This document shows, in pieces, positions 49,738-63,877 of a stretch of DNA of 64,000 nt. The stretch covers positions 4,736,001 through 4,800,000 of the forward strand of contig CAVWLP010000002.1 in assembly GCA_963755915.1 (NCBI GenBank), given 5' to 3'. Below the pieces are notes generated by a model. It saw only the letters and a program-made list of their open reading frames with translations, searched no databases and had not been told where the DNA came from. Made by a program: the position numbers and the translations under genes. This DNA comes from an uncultured Phycisphaerales bacterium. GTDB lineage: Bacteria > Planctomycetota > Phycisphaerae > Tepidisphaerales > Tepidisphaeraceae. The first letter of the stretch is position 1. Each line of letters opens with the position of its first letter.

Positions 49738-51090
<1,353 letters not shown>

Positions 51091-51206: not shown

Positions 51207-51223
51207 CTGGCCCCCCCTTCGCT
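51207..51223 (+). promoter_or_regulatory. Candidate sigma54 -24/-12 promoter
   Basis: CTGGCCCCCCCTTCGCT: GG-N10-GC, ahead of GGAGG RBS and ATG 51244. Confidence 0.55.
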
Positions 51224-51243
51224 TGGACATATGGAGGTTATTT

Positions 51244-53201
51244 ATGTTTGGTCTGCGCAAAAACTCTTCGTCGGCTTCGGTGGCTTGCTGGCCATCCTGC
51301 TGGCTGTCAGCAGCCTGGGGGTAGCCGTCCTGCACCAGCATCGAAGCTGGCTCGATCAGTTCCTCTATGAGAACTGGCGGAGCGTTGAATATGGCCAGCA
51401 CATGATCGACGGCCTGCAGCGCCTCGACGGGATCGCCCAGTCGGTCTCCGGCGCAACGGCGCAACCGACGGATGCGCAACTCGCCGCCGCCGCGGCTGCC
51501 GCCAAACCGGCGATCGACCTCTTCGACGCCAACTGCGTCGCTGAAGACCACAACATCACCCTCCCCACCGAAGACGAAAAAGCCTCCGGCCTGACGCTCC
51601 TCTGGAACGGCTACGCGATCAACACCCACACCGGCGAGAAACTTAACAAGACGACGGATGACACTTACCTCGACTGGTTTAGCAAGCTTATCTCCACCGA
51701 CACGACCGCCGCCCGGCGCACCGCCGCGATTGCCGCGGTCAGACGTCTTTCGCCGCAGCTCAAGGATCGTGCCCAGCAGGTGATCGACCTGAACCTGGAA
51801 AACATGCAGCCGCTGGAAGGTCGGATCAAGGACATGTCGGACCGCGCGACGAGCCTGATCATCCGGCTGGCAGTCATCGGCGTGGGTTTGGCGGTCGTGT
51901 TCATCCTCCTGATGAGCCGGGCGATCTTGCAGCCGCTCCAGACCCTCACGCGGTCGCTGGAAGAAATCTCGCAGGGGAATCTCGATCAAGTCGTGCAGGT
52001 GGGTTCGCATGACGAGCTTCATAAGCTGGCCGAGGCCTTCAACTCGATGGCCGCCAAGCTGCGAGAATTCCGCCGCAGCGACCGGGCGAAACTGATTCGC
52101 GTGCAGCGCACGACCCAACTTGCGGTCGATAGCTTGCCTGATGCCATTGCCGTGGTAAACGCCTCTGGCGTTGTCGAGCTTTCCAACGACACGGCCCAGA
52201 AACTTTTCCAGCTTCAGCCCGAGCAATCGATTCTTCAGATGCGCGATCAGCGCCTGGGCGAGCTTTACCAGGAAGTCGTCCGCACCAGTGCCCCTTCCCA
52301 GCAGAAGGGATACGAATCGGCTATCGAGATTTATGACCAGGGCGGGCAGTTGCGATTCTTCCTGCCGCAGGCCGTGCCGATCATCGACACGCAGCGGCAT
52401 CTTTTGGGCGTTACGCTTGTGCTGGGAGACGTGACCAATCTCCGCCGGCTCGATGAATTGAAGAGCGGCCTCCTCTCGGTCGTCTCCCACGAATTGAAGA
52501 CGCCGCTGACGTCGATTCGCATGGCCACGCACCTGCTGCTTGAAGAGCGGGTGGGCCCGCTCAACTCGAAACAAACCGAGCTGATGATGGCCGCCCGGGA
52601 TGACGCCGACCGGCTCCAGAAAATCATCGAAGATCTTTTGGACATGGGCCGGCTGGAATCGGGCCGGGTGAAGCTCGATCTTCAATCCGAGCCTTCGGAG
52701 CGGCTGGTATCCGATGCGGTGACGCCGCTGGAAACGGCTTTTCACGACAAGGGCGTCGCCCTGCGGGTGGATGTTCCGGTGGAAACACCGGCGGTTTTGG
52801 CCGACCCGGCGCGCATCGGGCACGTTTTCTCGAATCTTTTGACCAATGCCCTGAAGTTCACGCCGCCGGGCGGAAAAGTGCGCATCAGCGCCGAGCCGCT
52901 GGACAAATATGTCCGCTTCATCGTCGAAGACACCGGCATCGGCATCCCGCCCGAATACCTGGGAAGGATATTCGAGCGTTTTTACCGCGTTCCGCGCGAC
53001 AACCAGCCCAGCGGCGCCGGCCTGGGCCTGGCGATCGCCAAGGAAATTGTCGACGCGCATCACGGGAACATTTCCGTGGAAAGCAAGCCGGGGAAGGGGA
53101 GCGTTTTCAGTTTCACCCTCGAGCGGGCGAAGGACCCGCAGGTCAGTTCAGTCAAAGAGGTGAGTTATGAAACCAGCATCAATCCTCGTAACGGACGATG
53201 A
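51244..53201 (+). CDS. HAMP-PAS histidine kinase (KinB-like; frameshift near start)
   Basis: Two TMs, ENWRSVEY, HAMP, SHELKTPL, NLLTNA, DTGIGI, GAGLGL. Confidence 0.9.
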
Positions 53202-53917
53202 AAGCGGAATCCGCCTGATGCTGCGCACCGCCCTGGAGTCGGACGGTTACGCCGTATCCGAAGCCGCCAACGGGCGCGAAGCACTCGATGCGATCAAAAC
53301 GCATATTCCCGATCTCATTGTCCTGGACCTCAACATGCCAGTGCTCGACGGGATGGCCGTGCTGGAGCAGATGAAGACGCTGGCCACGGGCGTGCGTCCG
53401 CGGGTGATTGTTCTCACCGCATATGGCTCCATTCCCGCGGCGGTGAAGGCGACGCGCCTGGGTGCGCTGGATTTCCTGGAGAAACCGATCACGCCGTCGG
53501 ATCTTCGTCAGGCCGTCCGCAGCGTGCTCGACGAACCCGAGCTCGACACCGCGCCGGAAGTCGTCGTCGATGTGCCGGGCGGTTATGACCTGGTTCTCTC
53601 CCGCATTCGCAAGCTGCTGCGGCTCGCGGAATATGAAACCGCCATGGGGCTGCTCATGAAAGCCGCCGATCGAAAGGACCAGCAGTCGGCGGAATATTTC
53701 AATCTTCTGGGCGTGCTCTACGAAGCGCAAGGCAAATGGAGGCTGGCGCAAGTGCTACGACAAGGCCATGATGGCGGATGAAAACTACGGCCCGGCCCGC
53801 GCGAATCTGCGCCGGCTGCTGGAACTGCGTCGATTTCGGCGCAGCTCGCAGGCCATCTGCCTCGGCGACGAAGCCGAAGACCTCTGGTTCGCCAAGCTGC
53901 CGGAATCCGCAAACTGA
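53167..53917 (+). CDS. Response regulator with C-terminal TPR-like helices (frameshifted)
   Basis: ILVTDD, LDLNMP..DG, LTAYG, LEKP; YFNLLGVLYE. Confidence 0.85.
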
Positions 53918-53923
53918 AGCACG

Positions 53924-54727
53924 ATGTCCAACGCCGGAAAATCCATCCTCGTTGTCGACGATGAGCCGAATGTCCGGCTCATGCTCCGCTCCACGCTTGA
54001 AGCCGACGGGTTCTCCGTCACCGAAGCGTGTGACGGGGAAGAGGCGATCCAATCGGTCGAGCAATTGAGGCCGGCGCTTGTGCTGCTTGACCTCTGGATG
54101 CACCGAGGCGACGGGATGCAGGTATTGGAATACTTGAATCGCAAGGCCCCGGAAGATCACCCGCGGGTGATCGTGTTGACCGCGCATGGCCGGGTTCCGG
54201 TCGTCGTGAAGGCGATGCGCCTGGGGGCTTCAGATTTTCTGGAAAAGCCGACGACGCCGGAAGATCTGCGGCTCAGTGTTTCGGCGGCCCTGGAAGACGC
54301 GCCCGAAAAGAACCCCCAGCCGGTCGAGCAAACCCCGTCGCGCACGGCGGCAAAGCTCGGCCCCGTTCTGGCGGGCATCCGCAGCGCCGTCTGGAACCAG
54401 GATATCCGGCTCACCGAGCGCATCCTCACCGCGCTTTTCCGCAAGGCGTGGAGCGACCCCGCTTATTTCAATCTTCTCGGCGCCGTCTTCGAAGCCGAGG
54501 GAAACCGCGGCGCGGCCAAGACCTTCTACCAGAAATCCGCCGACTCCCGCGCCGAATGCGAAGCGGCCAAACAAAATTTGCAGCGATTAAATGAATTGAA
54601 TGCAGACCCCGAACATCCCGCCGACGCAGTGCTCGGCGGGCAGAACGAATTTCTCAAGATGATCTGTGACGAGCACCGTAACCACGGCTCGCAAAGCAAC
54701 CACCCAGATGAAGGAGCCAATTTATGA
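53924..54727 (+). CDS. Second response regulator with TPR-like tail
   Basis: ILVVDDE, LDLWM..GDG, LTAHG, LEKP; YFNLLGAVFE. Confidence 0.85.
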   Translation: MSNAGKSILVVDDEPNVRLMLRSTLEADGFSVTEACDGEEAIQSVEQLRPALVLLDLWMHRGDGMQVLEYLNRKAPEDHPRVIVLTAHGRVPVVVKAMRLGASDFLEKPTTPEDLRLSVSAALEDAPEKNPQPVEQTPSRTAAKLGPVLAGIRSAVWNQDIRLTERILTALFRKAWSDPAYFNLLGAVFEAEGNRGAAKTFYQKSADSRAECEAAKQNLQRLNELNADPEHPADAVLGGQNEFLKMICDEHRNHGSQSNHPDEGANL

Positions 54728-54807
54728 TGGATTGTGTTTATCTCGGCGCAATGATCGCGTTCTTCGCCATCTGCGTCCTTTACGCCCACGCGTTTGGAAA
54801 GATTTGA
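54727..54807 (+). CDS. 26-aa hydrophobic peptide upstream of kdpF
   Basis: MDCVYLGAMIAFFAICVLYAHAFGKI*; AAGGAG RBS; overlaps previous stop. Confidence 0.65.
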   Translation: MDCVYLGAMIAFFAICVLYAHAFGKI

Positions 54808-54825: not shown

Positions 54826-54912
54826 ATGGCTGAAAACATTATTGTTGGAATCGCATCCGTTGGATTGATGGTTTACCTGTTCTGGACCCTCATCCGTCCC
54901 GAGCATTTCTAA
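54826..54912 (+). CDS. kdpF: K+-ATPase subunit F
   Basis: MAENIIVGIASVGLMVYLFWTLIRPEHF* with YL..L.RPE.F signature; AGGAG RBS. Confidence 0.88.
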   Translation: MAENIIVGIASVGLMVYLFWTLIRPEHF

Positions 54913-54932: not shown

Positions 54933-56663
54933 ATGTCAACGTCCGGCTGGATACAACTCGCGGTTTATGTCGTGGTGCTCGTGGCGGTCACGAAGCCCAT
55001 GGGCATCTACCTTTTGCAGGTGCTCGACCCCGAGTTCGCCGGCGGCACGTTCCTCGATCGCGCTCTTGGGCCGGTCGAGCGCCTCATCTACGCCATCCTG
55101 CGCGTTGATCCCAAGCGCGAGCAGACCTGGAAGCAGTATGGGATCGCCATGCTCATCTTCAGCGTCGTCACGGCATTGATGACCTACACGATTCTGCGCC
55201 TCCAGAACCATCTGCCGCTGAATCCTCAGAGTTTCCCGGCCGTCGCCGACCATCTCGCTTTCAATACCTCGGCGAGTTTCACGACCAATACGAATTGGCA
55301 GAGCTACGGCGGCGAATCGACGATGTCGTATCTGTCGCAGATGCTGGCGCTGGCGAGCCACAACTTTTTCTCGGCTGCCGTGGGCATCGCCGTGGCGGCG
55401 GCTGTTATTCGGGGGATCGCTCGCAACAAGATCGGCACTCTCGGCAACTTCTGGCGCGATCTGGTCCGGCTTCACCTTTACCTGCTGCTGCCCATCTGCG
55501 TTCTTTACGCATCGTTCCTGATGAGCCAGGGAATCATTCAAAACTTCCGGCATTACTCAGTGCTCAATACGTTCGATCAAAGCGCGGCGGCGCAGCAGAC
55601 CATCGGCCAGGGACCAGTCGCTTCGCAGATCGCGATCAAAATGCTTGGCACCAACGGCGGCGGATTCTTCAACGCCAATGCAGCTCATCCTTTTGAGAAT
55701 TCAACGCCCCTTTGCAATTTCATTCAGATTCTGTCGATCTTCGTGATCCCCAGCGGTTTGACCTACTACCTCGGCCGGATGGTCAAAGACCAGGGCCACG
55801 GGTGGACCGTCTGGGCGGCGATGTTTGCCCTGTTCATCGCCGGGGTTGTGATCGCCTGGCCGGCGGAAGCCGCGGGCAATCCGCGTTTCACCTCACTGGG
55901 AGTCGATTCGGCAGCTGGGAATATGGAAGGCAAGGAAGTCCGCTTCGGAATTTTCGACTCGGCACTCTTTGCAACGATTACAACAGACGCCTCCTGCGGC
56001 GCCGTTAACTGCATGCACGACAGCATGACTCCGCTCGGAGGGCTGGTGCCGCTGTTCAATATTCAGACGGGCGAAGTCATCTTCGGCGGCGTTGGAGCGG
56101 GAATGTATGGCATGCTTATCTTTGTCATCCTCGCCATCTTCATCGCCGGATTGATGGTCGGACGCACGCCGGAATATCTCGGCAAGAAAATCGAAGGCTT
56201 CGACGTGAAATGCGCCGTATTGGCGATCCTTGCGCCCGCGGTCTGCATCCTTGGCTTCACCGCTTGGGCGTCGCAGAAAGACTGGGGAGTCGCCGGCACG
56301 AACAACAACGGCCCGCACGGCTTCAGTGAAATTCTCTACGCCTATACTTCCTGCGCCGGCAACAACGGCTCCGCCTTCGCCGGCATCAATACCAATACTC
56401 CCAATTACAACGACACATTGGCCATCGACATGCTCCTGGGCCGATTCTTCATGATCATCCCAATGCTCGCGATGGGTGGCCACCTCGCCACCAAGCGAAT
56501 CGCTCCGCAAAGCGCGGGCAGCTTCCCCGTCTCCGGAACCACTTTCACGCTCCTGCTCATCGGCACCGTCGTCATCGTCGGCGCGCTCACGTTTCTGCCG
56601 GCGCTGGCCATGGGGCCGATCGTTGAGCACTTTCAGATGTGGGGATCAAGGATGACCTTTTAA
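54933..56663 (+). CDS. kdpA: K+-ATPase subunit A, canonical
   Basis: Filter loops NTNWQ, TNGGG, SCGAV, NNGSA; GRTPEYLGKK. Confidence 0.96.
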   Translation: MSTSGWIQLAVYVVVLVAVTKPMGIYLLQVLDPEFAGGTFLDRALGPVERLIYAILRVDPKREQTWKQYGIAMLIFSVVTALMTYTILRLQNHLPLNPQSFPAVADHLAFNTSASFTTNTNWQSYGGESTMSYLSQMLALASHNFFSAAVGIAVAAAVIRGIARNKIGTLGNFWRDLVRLHLYLLLPICVLYASFLMSQGIIQNFRHYSVLNTFDQSAAAQQTIGQGPVASQIAIKMLGTNGGGFFNANAAHPFENSTPLCNFIQILSIFVIPSGLTYYLGRMVKDQGHGWTVWAAMFALFIAGVVIAWPAEAAGNPRFTSLGVDSAAGNMEGKEVRFGIFDSALFATITTDASCGAVNCMHDSMTPLGGLVPLFNIQTGEVIFGGVGAGMYGMLIFVILAIFIAGLMVGRTPEYLGKKIEGFDVKCAVLAILAPAVCILGFTAWASQKDWGVAGTNNNGPHGFSEILYAYTSCAGNNGSAFAGINTNTPNYNDTLAIDMLLGRFFMIIPMLAMGGHLATKRIAPQSAGSFPVSGTTFTLLLIGTVVIVGALTFLPALAMGPIVEHFQMWGSRMTF

Positions 56664-56696
56664 ACAAGGTTTTTGAGGGTTGGAAGGTATATCACT

Positions 56697-58538
56697 ATGA
56701 GTTACATGTCAGGTTCAGGTTGGGTTCAGTTGCTCGTCTTCTGCATCGGCTTGCTCCTTATCACCAAGCCGATGGGCCTCTATCTCCTGCGCGTCCTCGA
56801 CCCCGAAGTCGAGGGGGGCGTGGGACCGCTCGAGAAAATCCTCGGGCCGATTGAGAGGTTCACCTATTTTATCGCCCGAGTCGATCCCAAGAAGCAGCAG
56901 AACTGGAAGCAGTATCTCCTGTCCGTGCTCATGCTGGGATTCGTGACCATGGCACTCAGCTATGGGCTCTACCGGATTCAGGACATGCTGCCGCTTAAGC
57001 AGAACATGGCGAATCTCGCCCAGTCGGTCGACAAGTCCGGCGTGATAAATGGCGGGGGAAAAGTCCCGGGCATCATCGCCTTTATCCAAGGCGCCAGTTT
57101 CGTAACCAACACCGACTGGCAGAGCTACGAGCCGGAGCAGATGTTCACCTACTTCTCGCAGACGGTCTCGACCGCCCTGCACTTCTTCTTCTCCTCGGAG
57201 GTGGGCATCGCTGCCGCCGCGGTGGTGGTTCGATCGATTCGCCGCCGGGAGACGCGCGATCTGGGGAACTTCTGGGTGGATCTGACTCGCCAGACGCTTT
57301 ACCTCTTCCTGCCGATCTGCGTCGTGTTTGCGACGCTGGATATGTGGCAGGGAATTCCGATGAATTTTAACGCCTACACAAAGGCGACGGCGGTGGATCA
57401 ATCCGGCGCATCGGCCGGGCAACCCACGGTTCAAGGCATATTGCAGGGACCGATGGCTTCTTATTGTGCCCCGAAAGTTCTGGGCCTTAACGGCCCCGGA
57501 TTTACCGGCGCCGACTGCGCCCATCCGTTCGAAAATCCCACTCCGCTGGCCGAATTCCTTCAGTGGATGCTCTTTTTCTCCATCCCCTCCGGCATCGTCT
57601 ACTACTATGGCCGGATGATCGGCAACTCGCTTCACGCGTGGAATATCTGGCTGATCATGTTCATCATGCTGATGGGCACCCTCTTCGTCACCTGGTATTA
57701 CGAAGCCCAACCCAACCCCAACTTCGTGGCGATGGGCATCGACCCTCACAACGCCAACATGGAAGGCAAGGAAGTCCGCTTCGGAATCTATAACTCCGCG
57801 GCCTGGGCCAACGATGTCACCTGCACGGCCGAAGGCGCCAACAACTGTCAGCACGACTCGTTGACCCCCATGGCCGATTTCATGCTCCTCTTCAACATGC
57901 ACATGGGTGAACTTGTCTTCGGTGGCATCGGAACGGGCCTGTACACCATGATCATTTTCACGCTCGTGTCGGTCTTCCTCGCCGGGCTGATGATCGGCCG
58001 AACGCCGGAATACCTTGGCAAGAAGGTGGATGCCTACGGCGTGAAATGCGCGTGTCTCTACATGCTGGTGATGGTGATCGACGCCATCGGATTCACCGCC
58101 TGGGGCGCCGCCGCGACTTGGGGCAATGGAGCCGTCGGCAATAACGGGCCGCACGGTTTCAGCGAGATTTTCTACGCTTACAGCTCCGGAATGGCGAATA
58201 ACGGCACCGCCATGGGCGGCTACGGCTATTCGCCCACGGGCACCAATGCCGCCGGGCAGACGGTGTACACCAACACCATGTTCAACTGGACGCAGACTTA
58301 CTGCATGCTGATCGGCCGCTACTGGGAGCTGATCCCGGTTCTCGCCCTGGCCGGTGCGCTGGCGATTAAAAAACCGGCGCCTGCATCCGCGGGAAGCTTC
58401 CCCGTCGTCGGACCTACGTTTGTCTTACTTATCATCGCGGTCATCGTCATCGTCGGGGCGCTCAACTTCCTCCCCGGCCTGGCAATGGGACCGCTGCTGG
58501 AGCATTTCATCATGCGTGGCGGTGGAGTCCTGTACTGA
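56697..58538 (+). CDS. kdpA: Second, divergent KdpA with altered selectivity filter
   Basis: Full length and open; filter loops NTDWQ, LNGPG, AEGAN, NNGTA; MEGKEVRFG, GRTPEYLGKK. Confidence 0.92.
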   Translation: MSYMSGSGWVQLLVFCIGLLLITKPMGLYLLRVLDPEVEGGVGPLEKILGPIERFTYFIARVDPKKQQNWKQYLLSVLMLGFVTMALSYGLYRIQDMLPLKQNMANLAQSVDKSGVINGGGKVPGIIAFIQGASFVTNTDWQSYEPEQMFTYFSQTVSTALHFFFSSEVGIAAAAVVVRSIRRRETRDLGNFWVDLTRQTLYLFLPICVVFATLDMWQGIPMNFNAYTKATAVDQSGASAGQPTVQGILQGPMASYCAPKVLGLNGPGFTGADCAHPFENPTPLAEFLQWMLFFSIPSGIVYYYGRMIGNSLHAWNIWLIMFIMLMGTLFVTWYYEAQPNPNFVAMGIDPHNANMEGKEVRFGIYNSAAWANDVTCTAEGANNCQHDSLTPMADFMLLFNMHMGELVFGGIGTGLYTMIIFTLVSVFLAGLMIGRTPEYLGKKVDAYGVKCACLYMLVMVIDAIGFTAWGAAATWGNGAVGNNGPHGFSEIFYAYSSGMANNGTAMGGYGYSPTGTNAAGQTVYTNTMFNWTQTYCMLIGRYWELIPVLALAGALAIKKPAPASAGSFPVVGPTFVLLIIAVIVIVGALNFLPGLAMGPLLEHFIMRGGGVLY

Positions 58539-58583: not shown

Positions 58584-60674
58584 ATGGCTGCCAAAGCACG
58601 ACCCCTGTTCGATCCCGAAATCGTCATGCCGGCGATCTGGGAGAGCGTTAAGAAGCTCAACCCCGTTCACATGGTCAAGAACCCCGTCATGTTCGTGACC
58701 GAAGTTGGCGCGGTTCCTGACCACGCTAGATCTGTTCTTCACCAAGGACTCCCTCTGCGTTCGTCGCCCAGATTTCGCTGTGGCTGTGGTTCACGGTTCT
58801 CTTCGCCAACTTCGCCGAGGCCATGGCCGAAGGCCGCGGCAAGGCCCAGGCGGATGCCCTGCGCAAGAGCCGCACCAAAACCGTCGGCCGCAAGCTCATG
58901 CCTGACGGCTCGATTCAGACGGTCCCCGCGGAATCGTTCCGCAAGGGAGATATCTTCGTGGTGACGGCCAACGAGCTGATCGCCGCCGACGGCGAGATCA
59001 TCGAAGGCGCGGCCAGCGTTAACGAATCGGCCATCACCGGTGAATCCGCCCCGGTCATCCGCGAAGCCGGCGGCGACCGCTCGGCCGTTACCGGCGGCAC
59101 GACTGTCCTCTCGGATGAGATCAAGGTCCGCGTCACCGCCAACCCCGGCGAGAGCTTCATGGACCGCATGATCGAGCTGATCGAAGGCGCCAAACGTCAG
59201 AAGACGCCCAACGAAATCGCCCTTTCGATTCTGCTCTCGGCCCTGACGATCATCTTCCTGGCCGTCTGCATCACCATGCTCCCCTTCGCGATTTACACGC
59301 AGACGTATCTCAGCGCCGATGTCTACGCAGAAGGTGAGCCTGGCATCTTCTCCGTGACGGTGCTGATCGCCCTGCTGGTCTGCCTGATTCCGACAACGAT
59401 CGGCGGACTGCTTTCCGCCATCGGCATCGCCGGCATCGACCGAATGGTGCAGCACAACGTGCTGGCCATGAGCGGTAAAGCCGTTGAAGCCGCCGGCGAC
59501 GTCGACGTGCTTCTGCTGGATAAAACCGGCACGATCACCCTCGGCAATCGCGCCGCAGCCGAATTCATTCCCGCGCCGGGAGTGACGGAGACGGAATTAG
59601 CCGATGCCGCCCAGCTTTCCTCGCTGGCGGATGAAACGCCCGAGGGCCGCAGCATCGTCGTGCTGGCCAAGGAAAAGTACGGCATCCGCGGCCGGGAAAT
59701 CGGCGATATGCCCCATGCCGAATTCGTCCCCTTCACCGCCCAGACGCGCATGAGCGGCCTGAACTTGAATGGCGAAATGATCCGCAAAGGTGCTGCCGAC
59801 AGCGTTCGCAAATTCGTCCTGGCCGGTGGCGGCCGCCTTCCCCGCCGAGATCGATCGAACCGGTGGAAACGATCAGCCGCGCCGGCGGCACGCCTCTCGT
59901 CGTCGCCAGCACCACCAAAGTTTATGGAACGTCATTTATCTCAAGGACATCGTCAAGAGCGGCCTGCCCGACCGCTTCCAGCGCTTCCGGGCCATGGGCA
60001 TCAAGACGGTCATGATCACCGGCGACAACCCGCTGACCGCCGCCGCCATCGCCAAGGAAGCCGGCGTCGATGACTTCCTCGCCCAGGCCACGCCCGAAGA
60101 CAAGCTGGCCCTGCTCAAGAAAGAGCAGGCGGCGGGCCATCTCGTCGCCATGACCGGCGACGGCACCAACGACGCCCCGGCGCTGGCCCAGGCCGACGTC
60201 GGCGTCGCCATGAACACCGGCACCCAGGCCGCCAAGGAGGCCGGCAACATGGTCGATCTCGACAGCAACCCCACGAAGCTGATCGAAGTCGTCGAGATCG
60301 GCAAGCAGCTGCTGATGACCCGCGGCGCGCTGACGACCTTCAGCGTCGCCAACGACGTGGCGAAATATTTCGCCATCATCCCCGCGATGCTCATGGGCGC
60401 GTTCCCGCAGGTCGCCCCGCTGAACATCATGAAGCTGCACACGCCGCACAGCGCCATTCTCAGCGCCGTTATCTTTAACGCGATCATCATCATTCTGCTG
60501 ATTCCGCTGGCGCTGCGGGGCGTGAAATTCCGTCCGGCGCCGGCCGCCGTCATTCTGCGGCGCAATCTGCTGATCTACGGCTTCGGCGGCATCATTGCCC
60601 CGTTCCCCGGAATCAGGCTCATCGACCTTTTCATCAACGCCATCCACCTGCCCGGCTTGGCGATGATGCACTGA
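58584..60674 (+). CDS. kdpB: K+-ATPase subunit B (frameshifted)
   Basis: [40 protein letters not shown]. Confidence 0.93.
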
Positions 60675-60699: not shown

Positions 60700-61630
60700 A
60701 TGAAAAGCGAAAAAAACACCGGCCACACAATGGTCATCCACCGTGAGAACGACGTCCCCGGCGGCTCCCTGCTCGGCGCACATCTGGGCCTCCATCGCCG
60801 TCACCATCGTCCTGGGCATTATCTGCTGCGGCATCTATCCCCTGCTCATCTGGGGAATCGGCCAGGCGGCATTCCGCTGGCAGGCGGACGGCTCCCTCCT
60901 GGACAAGTACGGGAACCACACGACGGACGATACCCAGGCCGTCGGATCGGCGCTGATCGGCCAGAATTTCTCCGCCGCTCAATACTTCCATCCCCGGCCC
61001 AGCGCGGCCGGCGCGGGCTATGATGCCACCAGTTCAGGCGGGACCAACCTCGGCCCCCTCAGCGATAAGCTTATCAACGGCCTCAATAACGCCGCCACCA
61101 CGCAGCCCACTACCCAGCCCGAATCAATCACCTACGACGGCGTCCGCTTCCGCACCATCCACTACGCCTACACCAACGGCCTTTCCTTCAAGCTCTATAA
61201 CGTCGCGGCCGACGGCACGAAAACGGAAGTCCCGCTCAAGAACTACCAGAACAAGGACGGCACCCTCAACCAAATGGCGATGGTGGACGCGTTCCCCCAC
61301 AACGGCGCCACGGCCGGCCTGATCGCCGGCGATTTCAAAGACGCCAGCGGCAACGACGTGCTGATCCCCGGCGACGCCGTCACCGCCTCAGGTTCCGGCC
61401 TCGACCCCCACATCAGCCCGGCCAACGCCGCCCTGCAGGTTAATCGCGTCGCTGCGGCCAGGAAAATGTCGCCCGACCAAGTGAAAGAGCTCGTCGCCAA
61501 GTACACCGACGGGCCGGATCTGGGAATTCTGGGCGATCCGGGCGTGAATGTTCTGCGGCTGAATATCGCATTGGATAATCAAAATGACCCTCACCCTAAC
61601 CCTCTCCCGGAGTACCGGGAGAGGGGATAA
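60700..61630 (+). CDS. kdpC: K+-ATPase subunit C with large insertion (start uncertain)
   Basis: YPL, GSALIGQ.F, YFHPRPSA, SGGTNLGP, VTASGSGLDPHISP, VNVLRLN. Confidence 0.9.
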
Positions 61631-61634
61631 GAGG
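61588..61634 (+). repeat. REP-like element copy 3, overlapping kdpC 3' end
   Basis: CCCTCACCCTAACCCTCTCCCGGAGTACCGGGAGAGGGGATAAGAGG. Confidence 0.8.
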
Positions 61635-61811
61635 GCGTAAGAGGGAGCGGTTCAAAGAGTCACTTGGGTGCGTGGGCGTCTTGATCAACGTCCAAACCGC
61701 CGCATTCGGGTGCAAACAGGCACTGCGGGGCAACGGCGCTAGTTGCCACACGCCGACCCCGCGGTACCGTTTTAACTTAGAAAGGCAAAATCCGCCCGTG
61801 GCGAATGGCTG

Positions 61812-63497
61812 ATGACAGAGCACAATCTTTCCTCCAGATGATCCGCACGCTCCCAGCGGGGGCGGCTCAAGGTCTATCTCGGTTACGGCCCCGGCGTCGG
61901 AAAAACTTTCCGCATGCTGCAGGAAGCGCACCGCCTTAAAAACGAAGGGATCGACGTCGTCGTTGGCCTCGTCGAAACCCACGGCCGCGCCGAAACCGCC
62001 AGCCTCCTCGAAGGCCTTGAAGTCATCCCCCGCCGAAAGGTCGAATATCACCAAATCGTCGTTGAGGAAATGGATGTGGATGCCGTCATCGCCCGACACC
62101 CCACGGTCGCCATCGTCGATGAGCTCGCCCATACCAACGTCCCCGGCAGCAAAAACACCAAGCGATACCAGGACGTCCAGGACATCGTCGCCGCAGGAAT
62201 ACACGTGATTTCTGCCCTCAACATCCAGCATCTCGAAAGCCTCTACAACATGGTGGAGAACCTCATCGGCGTAAAAGTGCGCGAGCGCCTGCCCGATTCC
62301 GTCCTCGCCGAGGCCGACCAGATCATCAACATCGACCTCTCCGCCGAAGACCTCCAGCAGCGCCTCAAGGAGGGAAAGATCTATCCCATGGAGCGCGTTC
62401 AGTCCTCCCTGGAAAATTTCTTCACCAGCGGCAACCTCGAGCATCTGCGCGAACTGGCCCTGCGCGAACTGGCATCGCAGATCGACTTCAAGCGCCGCGA
62501 AAGCGCCGGCAGCAGCAGGTCGCCGCCCCCACCGACGCCTCGCCCGAGCAGATCATGGTCTGCCTCTCCTCGCGCGGCCCCAACAGCGCCCGCCTCCTCC
62601 GCATCGGATCGCGCCTCGCCGGCCGTCTCAATCGCAACTGGTACGCGGTCTACGTGCAAACGCCTTCCGAAGACCCCACCGTCATCGACGCTGTCACCCA
62701 GCGCCTCCTCGCCGAAACCCAGGACCTCGCCAAGCAGCTTGGCGCAACCGTCTTCCAGTTCAAGGGACAGAACATCGCCGACACTATCCTCCGTTTCGCC
62801 TCGGAATACGGCGTCGGCCAGATCGTCATCGGACGCCCCCATCCCATCCCCTGGTGGAAGCGACTCATCGGCCACCACAGCGTCGCCGAGGATCTCATCC
62901 ACGCGCCAAGGCCGTGAGCATCATCGTCGTCGACGCCGAAAGCGAAGAGCGCCGCAGCACCGAATTCGTCGAGCCCTCCACCCAGGCGACGATCACGTCG
63001 GTCCGCCCCGCCGGCACGCTTAGCCGCCTCCTCACGCCGCAGCGGATCGTCATCTGGGACGATCCCGTGCCGCGGCAGGAAGTCCGCCAGCGCCTCGCCG
63101 AGGCCGTCGCCGCGGCAATCCGAGCCTCGGCATCGACGAGATTGTTGAAAAAACTCGCCGAGCGCGAGCAACTGGGCTCCATCTTCCTCAATGAAGGCAT
63201 CGCCCTGCCGCACGCCCGCATGGAAAAGCTCGACAACCCGGAGGTCGCCCTCGGCCTGACGCGTTCCGGCCTGCTCGACGTTGTCACCGAGCAACCCATC
63301 TCAGCCGTGTTCCTGTTGCTTTCCCCCGCCGCCAAGGCCAACGTCCATCTGCAGCTTCTCGCCAAGGCCGGCCGCGCCCTCCAGAACCGCGAGCTGCGCG
63401 CGCACTGGCCCGCGTTTCCACTCCCGAGGAAGCGATGGAGGCCATCCAGGATTTTGAAGCCGCCTTCAGCGGCCAGACTGTCGTCGCCTCCAAATAA
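61812..63497 (+). CDS. KdpD N-terminal domain + USP + PTS EIIA fusion, no kinase domain (frameshifted)
   Basis: LKVYLGYGPGVGKT, ETHGR, VDELAHTN, LRELALRE; USP MVCLSSRGPN...IVIGR; EIIA ERE.LGS...GIALPHAR...HLQLL. Confidence 0.8.
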
Positions 63498-63499
63498 CC

Positions 63500-63877
63500 A
63501 TGCGCGACGAACCTCCCAGCACCGCCTTCCTTACGGCCCTGGAGGCCATCGCCTCGCGCATCAACGCCGCGACCTTCGCCTTCGACAACCCCGACGGCTC
63601 CCGCCGCGGCTTCGTCCAGTTTCTCGCCAGCCCCGATGACAGCCTCAAGATTCACCGCCTCTGGGTCCTGGAGCCCGGAATCGGTCACGGTTCGCAGATC
63701 CTGACCTCAATCTGCGATCTCGCCGACCAGCACGGCGTGAAAATCGTCCTCAAGACCGTCCCCTTCGGCGGCAAGCCCTACCCCATGCCGCGCGAGTCCC
63801 TCGCCGCCTGGTACCGCCGTCACGGCTTCGAAGGTCCCCGCTGGAAACTCGCGCGAAAACCCGGCGCGCTTCGCTGA
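63500..63877 (+). CDS. Small GNAT-like protein
   Basis: LWV..PGIGHGSQIL..I.DLAD..GV...LAAWYRRHGF. Confidence 0.6.
   Translation: MRDEPPSTAFLTALEAIASRINAATFAFDNPDGSRRGFVQFLASPDDSLKIHRLWVLEPGIGHGSQILTSICDLADQHGVKIVLKTVPFGGKPYPMPRESLAAWYRRHGFEGPRWKLARKPGALR

Follow-up and report, generated by a model that had tools for sequence, protein, structure and literature searches.

A kdp operon with two kdpA genes in front of one kdpB lies in the 64,000-nucleotide stretch of DNA analysed here (the window: positions 4,736,001 to 4,800,000 of contig CAVWLP010000002.1, forward strand, from assembly GCA_963755915.1 of an uncultured Phycisphaerales bacterium of the family Tepidisphaeraceae). Comparison with its relatives points, with a probability of about 0.7, to the product of the second gene, KdpA2, as a working alternative ion-selecting subunit that shares one KdpB, KdpC and KdpF with the product of the first, KdpA1. 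KdpFABC is the standard textbook example of a P-type ATPase that receives its ion from a channel-like subunit, and the filter of KdpA is credited with the extreme K+ selectivity of the complex. An earlier sequence-only reading of the window had reported two intact, full-length kdpA genes before a single kdpB and kdpC, and this arrangement was confirmed by the listing of open reading frames (ORFs), by their translation and by a search of the assembly, where two kdpA and one kdpB are present and no second kdpA pair or kdpB was found in the 81% of the genome that the assembly covers.

A conserved KdpA subfamily with a rebuilt filter

KdpA1 and KdpA2 are 49% identical and both frames are open. KdpA1 scores 755 bits and KdpA2 564 bits against the Pfam KdpA model PF03814 (cut-off 22.6), and 720 and 493 bits, respectively, against the equivalog model TIGR00680 (cut-off 387.7); KdpA2 also matches the E. 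coli KdpA chains with an E value of 1.4e-103. The best Foldseek match of an AlphaFold model of KdpA2 (predicted template-modelling score, pTM, 0.82) is 5mrw_A (root-mean-square deviation 2.7, 36% identity), with template-modelling scores of 0.85 normalised to the query and 0.93 normalised to the target, as found for a KdpA fold. KdpA2 is thus a member of the KdpA family by sequence models, by fold and by its kdpF, kdpB and kdpC neighbourhood. With E. coli KdpA (KdpFABC; PDB 5MRW and 6HRA) it has the family, the fold, the four P-loops and the neighbouring genes in common, and the window differs from the E. coli system in the filter substitutions, in inserts beside P-loops 1 and 4 and in having two kdpA per kdpB, where the canonical KdpFABC heterotetramer has one.

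The eight filter motifs of the two proteins each occur once, where the sequence-only reading had placed them, with those of KdpA2 at 57108 (NTDWQ), 57486 (LNGPG), 57828 (AEGAN) and 58197 (NNGTA); the MEGKEVRFG, GRTPEYLGKK and GR motifs that it had listed as kept are indeed present in both KdpA1 and KdpA2. Relative to E. coli KdpA, in an alignment to the 6HRA chain, the filter of KdpA2 carries N114D, T230L, G233P, S343A, C344E, V347N and S469T, and it keeps Q116, G232, G345 and G468 as well as the buried pair E370/R493. KdpA2 therefore does not have the side chains of a canonical filter (T or S at 230, G or A at 233, an uncharged polar residue at 344 and S469). One of the two E. coli papers used here (PMC12629597, PMC8385062) describes both lower ligands of site S4 as oxygens of side chains, without naming the residues in its available text; if those ligands are T230 and S343, KdpA2 would have lost both of them.

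A search over 5.8 billion proteins listed 120 relatives of KdpA2 at 64-100% identity, with source names from Tepidisphaeraceae and Thermoguttaceae metagenome-assembled genomes (MAGs). Every one of the 113 full-length members of the clade, of which 111 are database clusters and two are start versions of the window's KdpA2, has NTDWQ, LNGPG, AEGAN and NNGT; 19 of the 20 filter positions are invariant across the clade, and the twentieth is A or S. The filter glycines, Q116, E370 and R493 are invariant or nearly so (R493 in 112 of the 113 sequences), and the GRTPEYLGKK segment is conserved. Ratios of nonsynonymous to synonymous substitution rates (dN/dS, NG86 method), calculated for 21 pairs from seven genomes, range from 0.06 to 0.23 for A2 and from 0.09 to 0.27 for A1; many of the synonymous distances exceed 1, and for the pair with the least saturation the ratios are 0.06 (A2) and 0.13 (A1). 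The sequence-only reading had proposed looking for the NTD/LNGPG/AEG pattern and the tandem gene order in homologues and testing dN/dS; the pattern is conserved throughout, the order recurs (see below) and A2 is under purifying selection like A1.

The clade is also set apart from other KdpAs. In a clustering at 50% identity (1.84 billion representatives), one full-length A2 cluster was returned at 1281 bits, and the next protein scored 468 bits at 45% identity. The filter was compared with those of the 105 full-length proteins among the 149 other proteins returned, after the 44 shorter than 520 amino acids had been dropped. L230, P233 and E344 each occur in none of these 105 representatives, N347 in three and T469 in two, and D114 in 20. 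The filter changes, which the sequence-only reading had presented as a rewiring, are therefore specific to the clade at 230, 233 and 344, and its emphasis on the acidic residue gained at N114D was overstated. Sixteen positions are diagnostic between 113 A2 and 107 other sequences, five of them around P-loop 2 (I225P, T230L, G233P, F236T and N239D). Inserts conserved in the clade lie just on the N-terminal side of P-loop 1 and just past P-loop 4, and the P-loop regions hold a mean of about 11 acidic residues in A2 versus about 5 in other KdpAs. The KdpA2 clade is a conserved subfamily with a rebuilt filter and not a decaying copy; the idea that KdpA2 is a duplicate turning into a pseudogene draws on its divergence from A1 and nothing more, and the open frame, the low dN/dS, the invariant motifs and the occurrence in two classes of the phylum leave it next to no probability, with motif invariance and dN/dS already refuting it.

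Gene order, partners and origin

In order to place the tandem arrangement, 25 A2 loci were collected from contigs of one genome per species, all of them Planctomycetota MAGs from two classes of the phylum. The order A1-A2-B-C occurs in 11 of the 25, and one further locus is such an operon truncated to its second half. In another 12, mostly from Planctomycetia, A2-B-C stands without a kdpA directly in front, and in nine of these 12 a small conserved reading frame (ORF-X, see below) and kdpF lie directly 5' of A2; one such ORF-X-kdpF-A2 locus is on a Tepidisphaeraceae contig that starts 287 nucleotides 5' of ORF-X. As A2 is the sole kdpA of the kdpF-A2-B-C operons, it would be able to serve the pump alone. 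All five A2-only genomes that were checked carry a further KdpA at another site, with a higher family-model score. No conservation was seen in the flanks of the Planctomycetia A2-B-C operons, which gave no functional hint. The remaining locus, L037, has the order A1-B-C-A2-C'-A3-kdpD with a single kdpB.

This locus (L037, 1194-14795) holds three kdpA (A1, A2 and A3), two kdpC with 61% identity between them, a single kdpB and a kdpD of full length. The A3 type of KdpA has the filter TTTWQ / TNGGG / ATGST / NNGQA and was seen downstream of kdpC in two Tepidisphaeraceae loci (L037, 10305-12020; L027, 3970-5796).

A2 was found in 8 of 12 other genomes of the window's genus (62-87% identity), in 1 of 12 sampled genomes from other genera of the family and in none of 16 genomes from other families of the class. 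A DNA signature of A2 (G-L-N-G-P-G, seven codons, H-P-F-E) matched the window's genome and no other in the scan, which included 400 genomes drawn evenly from across the phylum but outside the window's family. As the signature matched none of these 400, the A2 type is rare across the phylum at large among the genomes searched. The organisms that bear A2 are peat and soil planctomycetes.

In both A1-A2 and A2-only operons, KdpB has the same residues as E. coli at D307, S162, L228, F232, IPTTIG, D583 and K586, a set named in PMC12629597 and PMC8385062 or taken by us as catalytic or ion-site residues. Because this ion site is unchanged, KdpB argues for a monovalent cation as the substrate of the A2 pump. 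A KdpC specific to A2 was considered and rejected: the KdpCs group by lineage and not by A type, and in L037 the nearest relative of each KdpC is the other one.

Phylogenetic trees were built with FastTree on 81 KdpAs and with IQ-TREE on 43, and they agree; single-kdpA operons such as L014 (genome G014) are among several comparison rows. All 18 A2 rows fall into a single clade (support 100), whose stem measures about 0.5 changes per site, and this clade is nested inside that of the Tepidisphaeraceae KdpAs (support 100). The second KdpA of genome G020 is the sister of the A2 clade (support 99); it is encoded 3' of kdpC in the order kdpA-kdpB-kdpC-kdpA'-kdpD (L028, G020:C4, 4697-11371) and has a canonical filter, none of the A2 inserts and about two of 19 A2 states. 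On these trees A2 is a duplicate of the family's own kdpA that arose within the Tepidisphaeraceae, and since the sister paralogue keeps the canonical filter, duplication came first and rewiring later. Change was rapid along the stem of A2 and was followed by stasis. The nine A2 rows from Planctomycetia group together as a clade within the Tepidisphaeraceae A2 rows, and in a tree rooted on E. coli the Planctomycetia KdpBs are also nested among those of the Tepidisphaeraceae. Because both proteins are nested in this way, the A2-B-C block was probably transferred into the Planctomycetia, with the direction suggested by the trees; an approximately unbiased (AU) test of a single Tepidisphaeraceae A2 clade, a group named after inspection of the tree, gave p 0.044.

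The operon and the quality of its sequence

The features of the operon and its surroundings are collected in the table. It is flanked by an NtrC-type activator and a PAS kinase on the 5' side and by a kinase-less protein with KdpD N-terminal and Usp parts.

Features of the kdp region, in coordinates of the window
Feature	Coordinates	Strand	Basis and remarks
NtrC-type sigma-54-dependent response regulator (context, upstream regulator)	49738..51090	+	Pfam Response_reg + Sigma54_activat + HTH_8
Sensor histidine kinase (HAMP-PAS-HisKA-HATPase)	51231..53201	+	Pfam; upstream of kdp genes in relatives too
Response-regulator receiver protein 1	53167..53781	+	Pfam Response_reg; G010 orthologue 251 amino acids
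Response-regulator receiver protein 2	53924..54727	+	Pfam Response_reg; gene order in relatives
ORF-X, conserved 27-amino-acid hydrophobic peptide, 5' of kdpF	54724..54807	+	no Pfam or NCBIfam match
kdpF	54826..54912	+	Pfam Potass_KdpF, E 1e-5; TIGR02115 above cut-off
kdpA1, canonical filter NTNWQ / TNGGG / SCGAV / NNGSA, 576 amino acids	54933..56663	+	Pfam KdpA, TIGR00680; groups with relatives' single kdpA in trees
kdpA2, rewired filter NTDWQ / LNGPG / AEGAN / NNGTA	56697..58538	+	ATG start; 613 amino acids, the database form
kdpB	58584..60674	+	five frameshifts as written; intact 693-amino-acid orthologues
kdpC, long form with insert	60700..61630	+	Pfam KdpC 205 bits; TIGR00681; 1-nucleotide error near 60780
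kdpD-like gene: KdpD N-terminal sensor + USP + PTS EIIA-2, no kinase	61800..63639, start approximate	+	indel-broken; intact 562-amino-acid G010 orthologue

The longest ORF of kdpA2 starts at a TTG (56673) and encodes 621 amino acids, as compared to 613 from the ATG, and a GGAAGG resembling a ribosome-binding site lies 9 nucleotides upstream of that ATG. The gap between kdpA1 and kdpA2 is 33 nucleotides and holds terminator-like sites at no more than chance level. A search for the -24/-12 promoter consensus of sigma-54 gave 21 matches versus 29.5 expected, none above chance, with the best candidate at 51208-51223 carrying two mismatches.

The source assembly consists of three contigs, with 8% contamination besides the completeness given above, and related few-contig assemblies score similarly low, as is typical of uncorrected long-read bins. 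As written, kdpB changes frame five times (near 58712, 58758, 59835, 59865 and 59932), kdpC once and the kdpD-like gene several times. Short-read contigs (four runs of one study) show no difference from kdpA1 and kdpA2. Near-identical short-read contigs are without one base at each of 58712, 58758 and 60780 and without two at 59932, and they differ from the kdpD-like gene by single bases at six further sites; for the frameshifts near 59835 and 59865 no covering short-read contig was listed. Because the short-read contigs are without most of these shifts and kdpB is intact at 693 amino acids in short-read relatives, the frameshifts in kdpB, kdpC and the kdpD-like gene are probably assembly errors, and the window copy of receiver protein 1 is probably cut by an assembly indel as well. 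The conserved part of kdpB (59887-60508) has a much greater contig depth, which points to consensus errors caused there by cross-mapping of related populations. In two runs, summed contig depth rises sharply, about tenfold, over 61442-61752, from the end of kdpC into the spacer that follows; this region, in which the kdpC frame closes with a proline-rich tail, is probably a repeated element of these genomes.

ORF-X is present in 22 of 27 planctomycete kdp loci inspected (the window, L012-L014, L018 and L030-L053), in single-A, A1-A2 and A2-only operons alike, and its product could serve as a leader peptide or as a small fifth subunit. A role as a second KdpF dedicated to A2 was rejected, as ORF-X precedes kdpF in single-kdpA operons too. 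The kdpD-like gene (window ~61800-63639; L024, 10921-12609) in effect joins the sensor half of KdpD to an EIIA(Ntr)-like domain.

What KdpA2 may do for the pump

In E. coli, the KdpA filter governs the choice of ion and KdpB is promiscuous (PMC12629597), and mutations in the filter let the pump accept Rb+ and NH4+, though not Na+; the mutants G232D and Q116R have altered affinity and G232D altered selectivity too, with coupled Rb+ and NH4+ transport via KdpB (PMC12629597, PMC8385062; all as given in the available text of these papers). These mutants are a precedent for a mechanism by filter change, and they differ from A2 in being single, destabilising laboratory mutations, whereas A2 keeps G232 and Q116 and has a different set of natural, coordinated and conserved changes. 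The available text of the same two papers holds no discussion that we found of the A2 filter states. TrkG and TrkH of E. coli, paralogues of the SKT family with distinct ion-transport activities in one cell (PMC9898762, in its available text), are likewise paralogous channel-like subunits of the superfamily to which KdpA belongs; unlike kdpA1 and kdpA2, which share one operon and one motor, they come from separate loci and do not belong to a P-type ATPase. Searches of the published literature, with supplements and older mutagenesis papers outside their scope, found no description of tandem kdpA or of the A2 filter, in agreement with the remark of the sequence-only reading that it knew of no characterised system of this kind, and the available text of a 2023 review of P-type ATPases describes Kdp as a four-subunit, strictly K+-selective pump.

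The one operon and its one KdpB motor would give two pump isoforms, KdpF-A1-B-C and KdpF-A2-B-C. The rebuilt filter of A2 probably gives the same motor different ion-binding properties, and a different cation or affinity is plausible because, in E. coli, the filter governs selection and KdpB is promiscuous. The substrate of the A2 pump would most likely still be a monovalent cation of about the size of K+: either K+ itself, handled with another affinity, capacity or response to pH, or a wider set of ions that takes in, for example, NH4+ or Rb+.

Several points weigh against this reading. The window's own kdpB is frameshifted as written, with two of its five shifts outside the short-read cover, and it is gene order that suggests the physical assembly of KdpA2 with KdpB, KdpC and KdpF. 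D114 is common in ordinary KdpAs, and the 105 proteins compared are the representatives nearest to A2 and not a random sample of KdpA. The predicted local confidence (pLDDT) of the AlphaFold model falls below 50 at residues 142-147 and 375-388, in the rewired loops 1 and 3, and since it is lowest there no side-chain geometry is argued for KdpA2. In addition, the selectivity of A2 could be unchanged, as the S3-forming backbone positions and all of the filter glycines are kept.

On that last account, KdpA2 would be a K+-selective isoform with essentially the selectivity of KdpA1, retained for robustness or dosage or for stability or regulation under particular conditions, and its filter changes would be neutral or compensated. 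Conservation of Q116, E370 and R493 along with the glycines, the unchanged KdpB site and the frequency of D114 elsewhere all fit, and the canonical filter of the G020 sister paralogue indicates that a second KdpA can persist without rewiring. We consider this unlikely because a new function is a better fit than redundancy to three filter states seen in none of the 105 other KdpAs yet invariant in the clade, to a long stem followed by stasis and to the constant co-occurrence of A2 with a canonical KdpA in the genomes checked. The sequence-only reading had offered an interchangeable channel subunit and a sensing or regulatory subunit side by side, and the comparison supports the former through strong conservation, shared kdpB, kdpC and kdpF and the loci with A2 as the sole kdpA. 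A KdpA2 that does not transport for the pump, and instead either has a sensing or regulatory role for the A1-B-C pump or forms a channel by itself without KdpB, is compatible with gene order in the A1-A2 operons, but in the 12 A2-only loci, where A2 lies beside kdpF, kdpB and kdpC, KdpB would otherwise be left without a channel subunit; with the buried E370/R493 pair and the GRTPEYLGKK region also conserved, it is quite improbable.

The more acidic filter, with D114 and E344 gained and about twice the usual acidic residues in the P-loop regions, might instead suggest that KdpA2 makes the pump carry a divalent cation such as Mg2+, Ca2+ or Mn2+. KdpB nevertheless keeps the D583/K586 pair and the IPTTIG of transmembrane helix 4 of a K+ pump, D114 is found in ordinary KdpAs too, and the side chain equivalent to E344 in K+ channels presumably points away from the pore, so that we regard a divalent substrate as highly improbable.

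Returning to KdpA2 as an alternative selecting subunit, a bolder version, which we put forward tentatively and think doubtful as it stands, is that of a modular pump in which one KdpB takes interchangeable KdpA cartridges (A1, A2 and, in some genomes, A3). A2 would then retarget the pump to a cation other than K+, most attractively NH4+ in an ATP-driven ammonium pump, or would sustain K+ pumping under acid conditions where the canonical filter fails. The 81%-complete assembly yielded no convincing TrkH or KtrB (best matches 24-28 bits) and no Kup above cut-off, and most of the K+ uptake that can be recognised in this genome may therefore fall to Kdp. As at least three Amt-type ammonium transporter loci are present in the assembly, NH4+ uptake would be independent of A2. 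For a genome of this completeness, the lack of a convincing Trk or Kup match and the presence of the Amt loci lean slightly towards a second mode of K+ uptake over ammonium uptake.

To our knowledge, the idea that the filter sets the selectivity of Kdp has so far rested on single laboratory mutations. The A2 clade offers a stable second filter design, held under purifying selection on the same KdpB as the canonical one, and so a natural experiment in how the filter sets affinity and selectivity and in how tolerant KdpB is. If A2 changes affinity or pH behaviour alone, it would show how the K+ needs of an organism without a clear Trk or Kup, as far as its 81%-complete assembly goes, are met by one ATPase; if it changes the ion, it would give the first example from nature of a Kdp pump for an ion other than K+.

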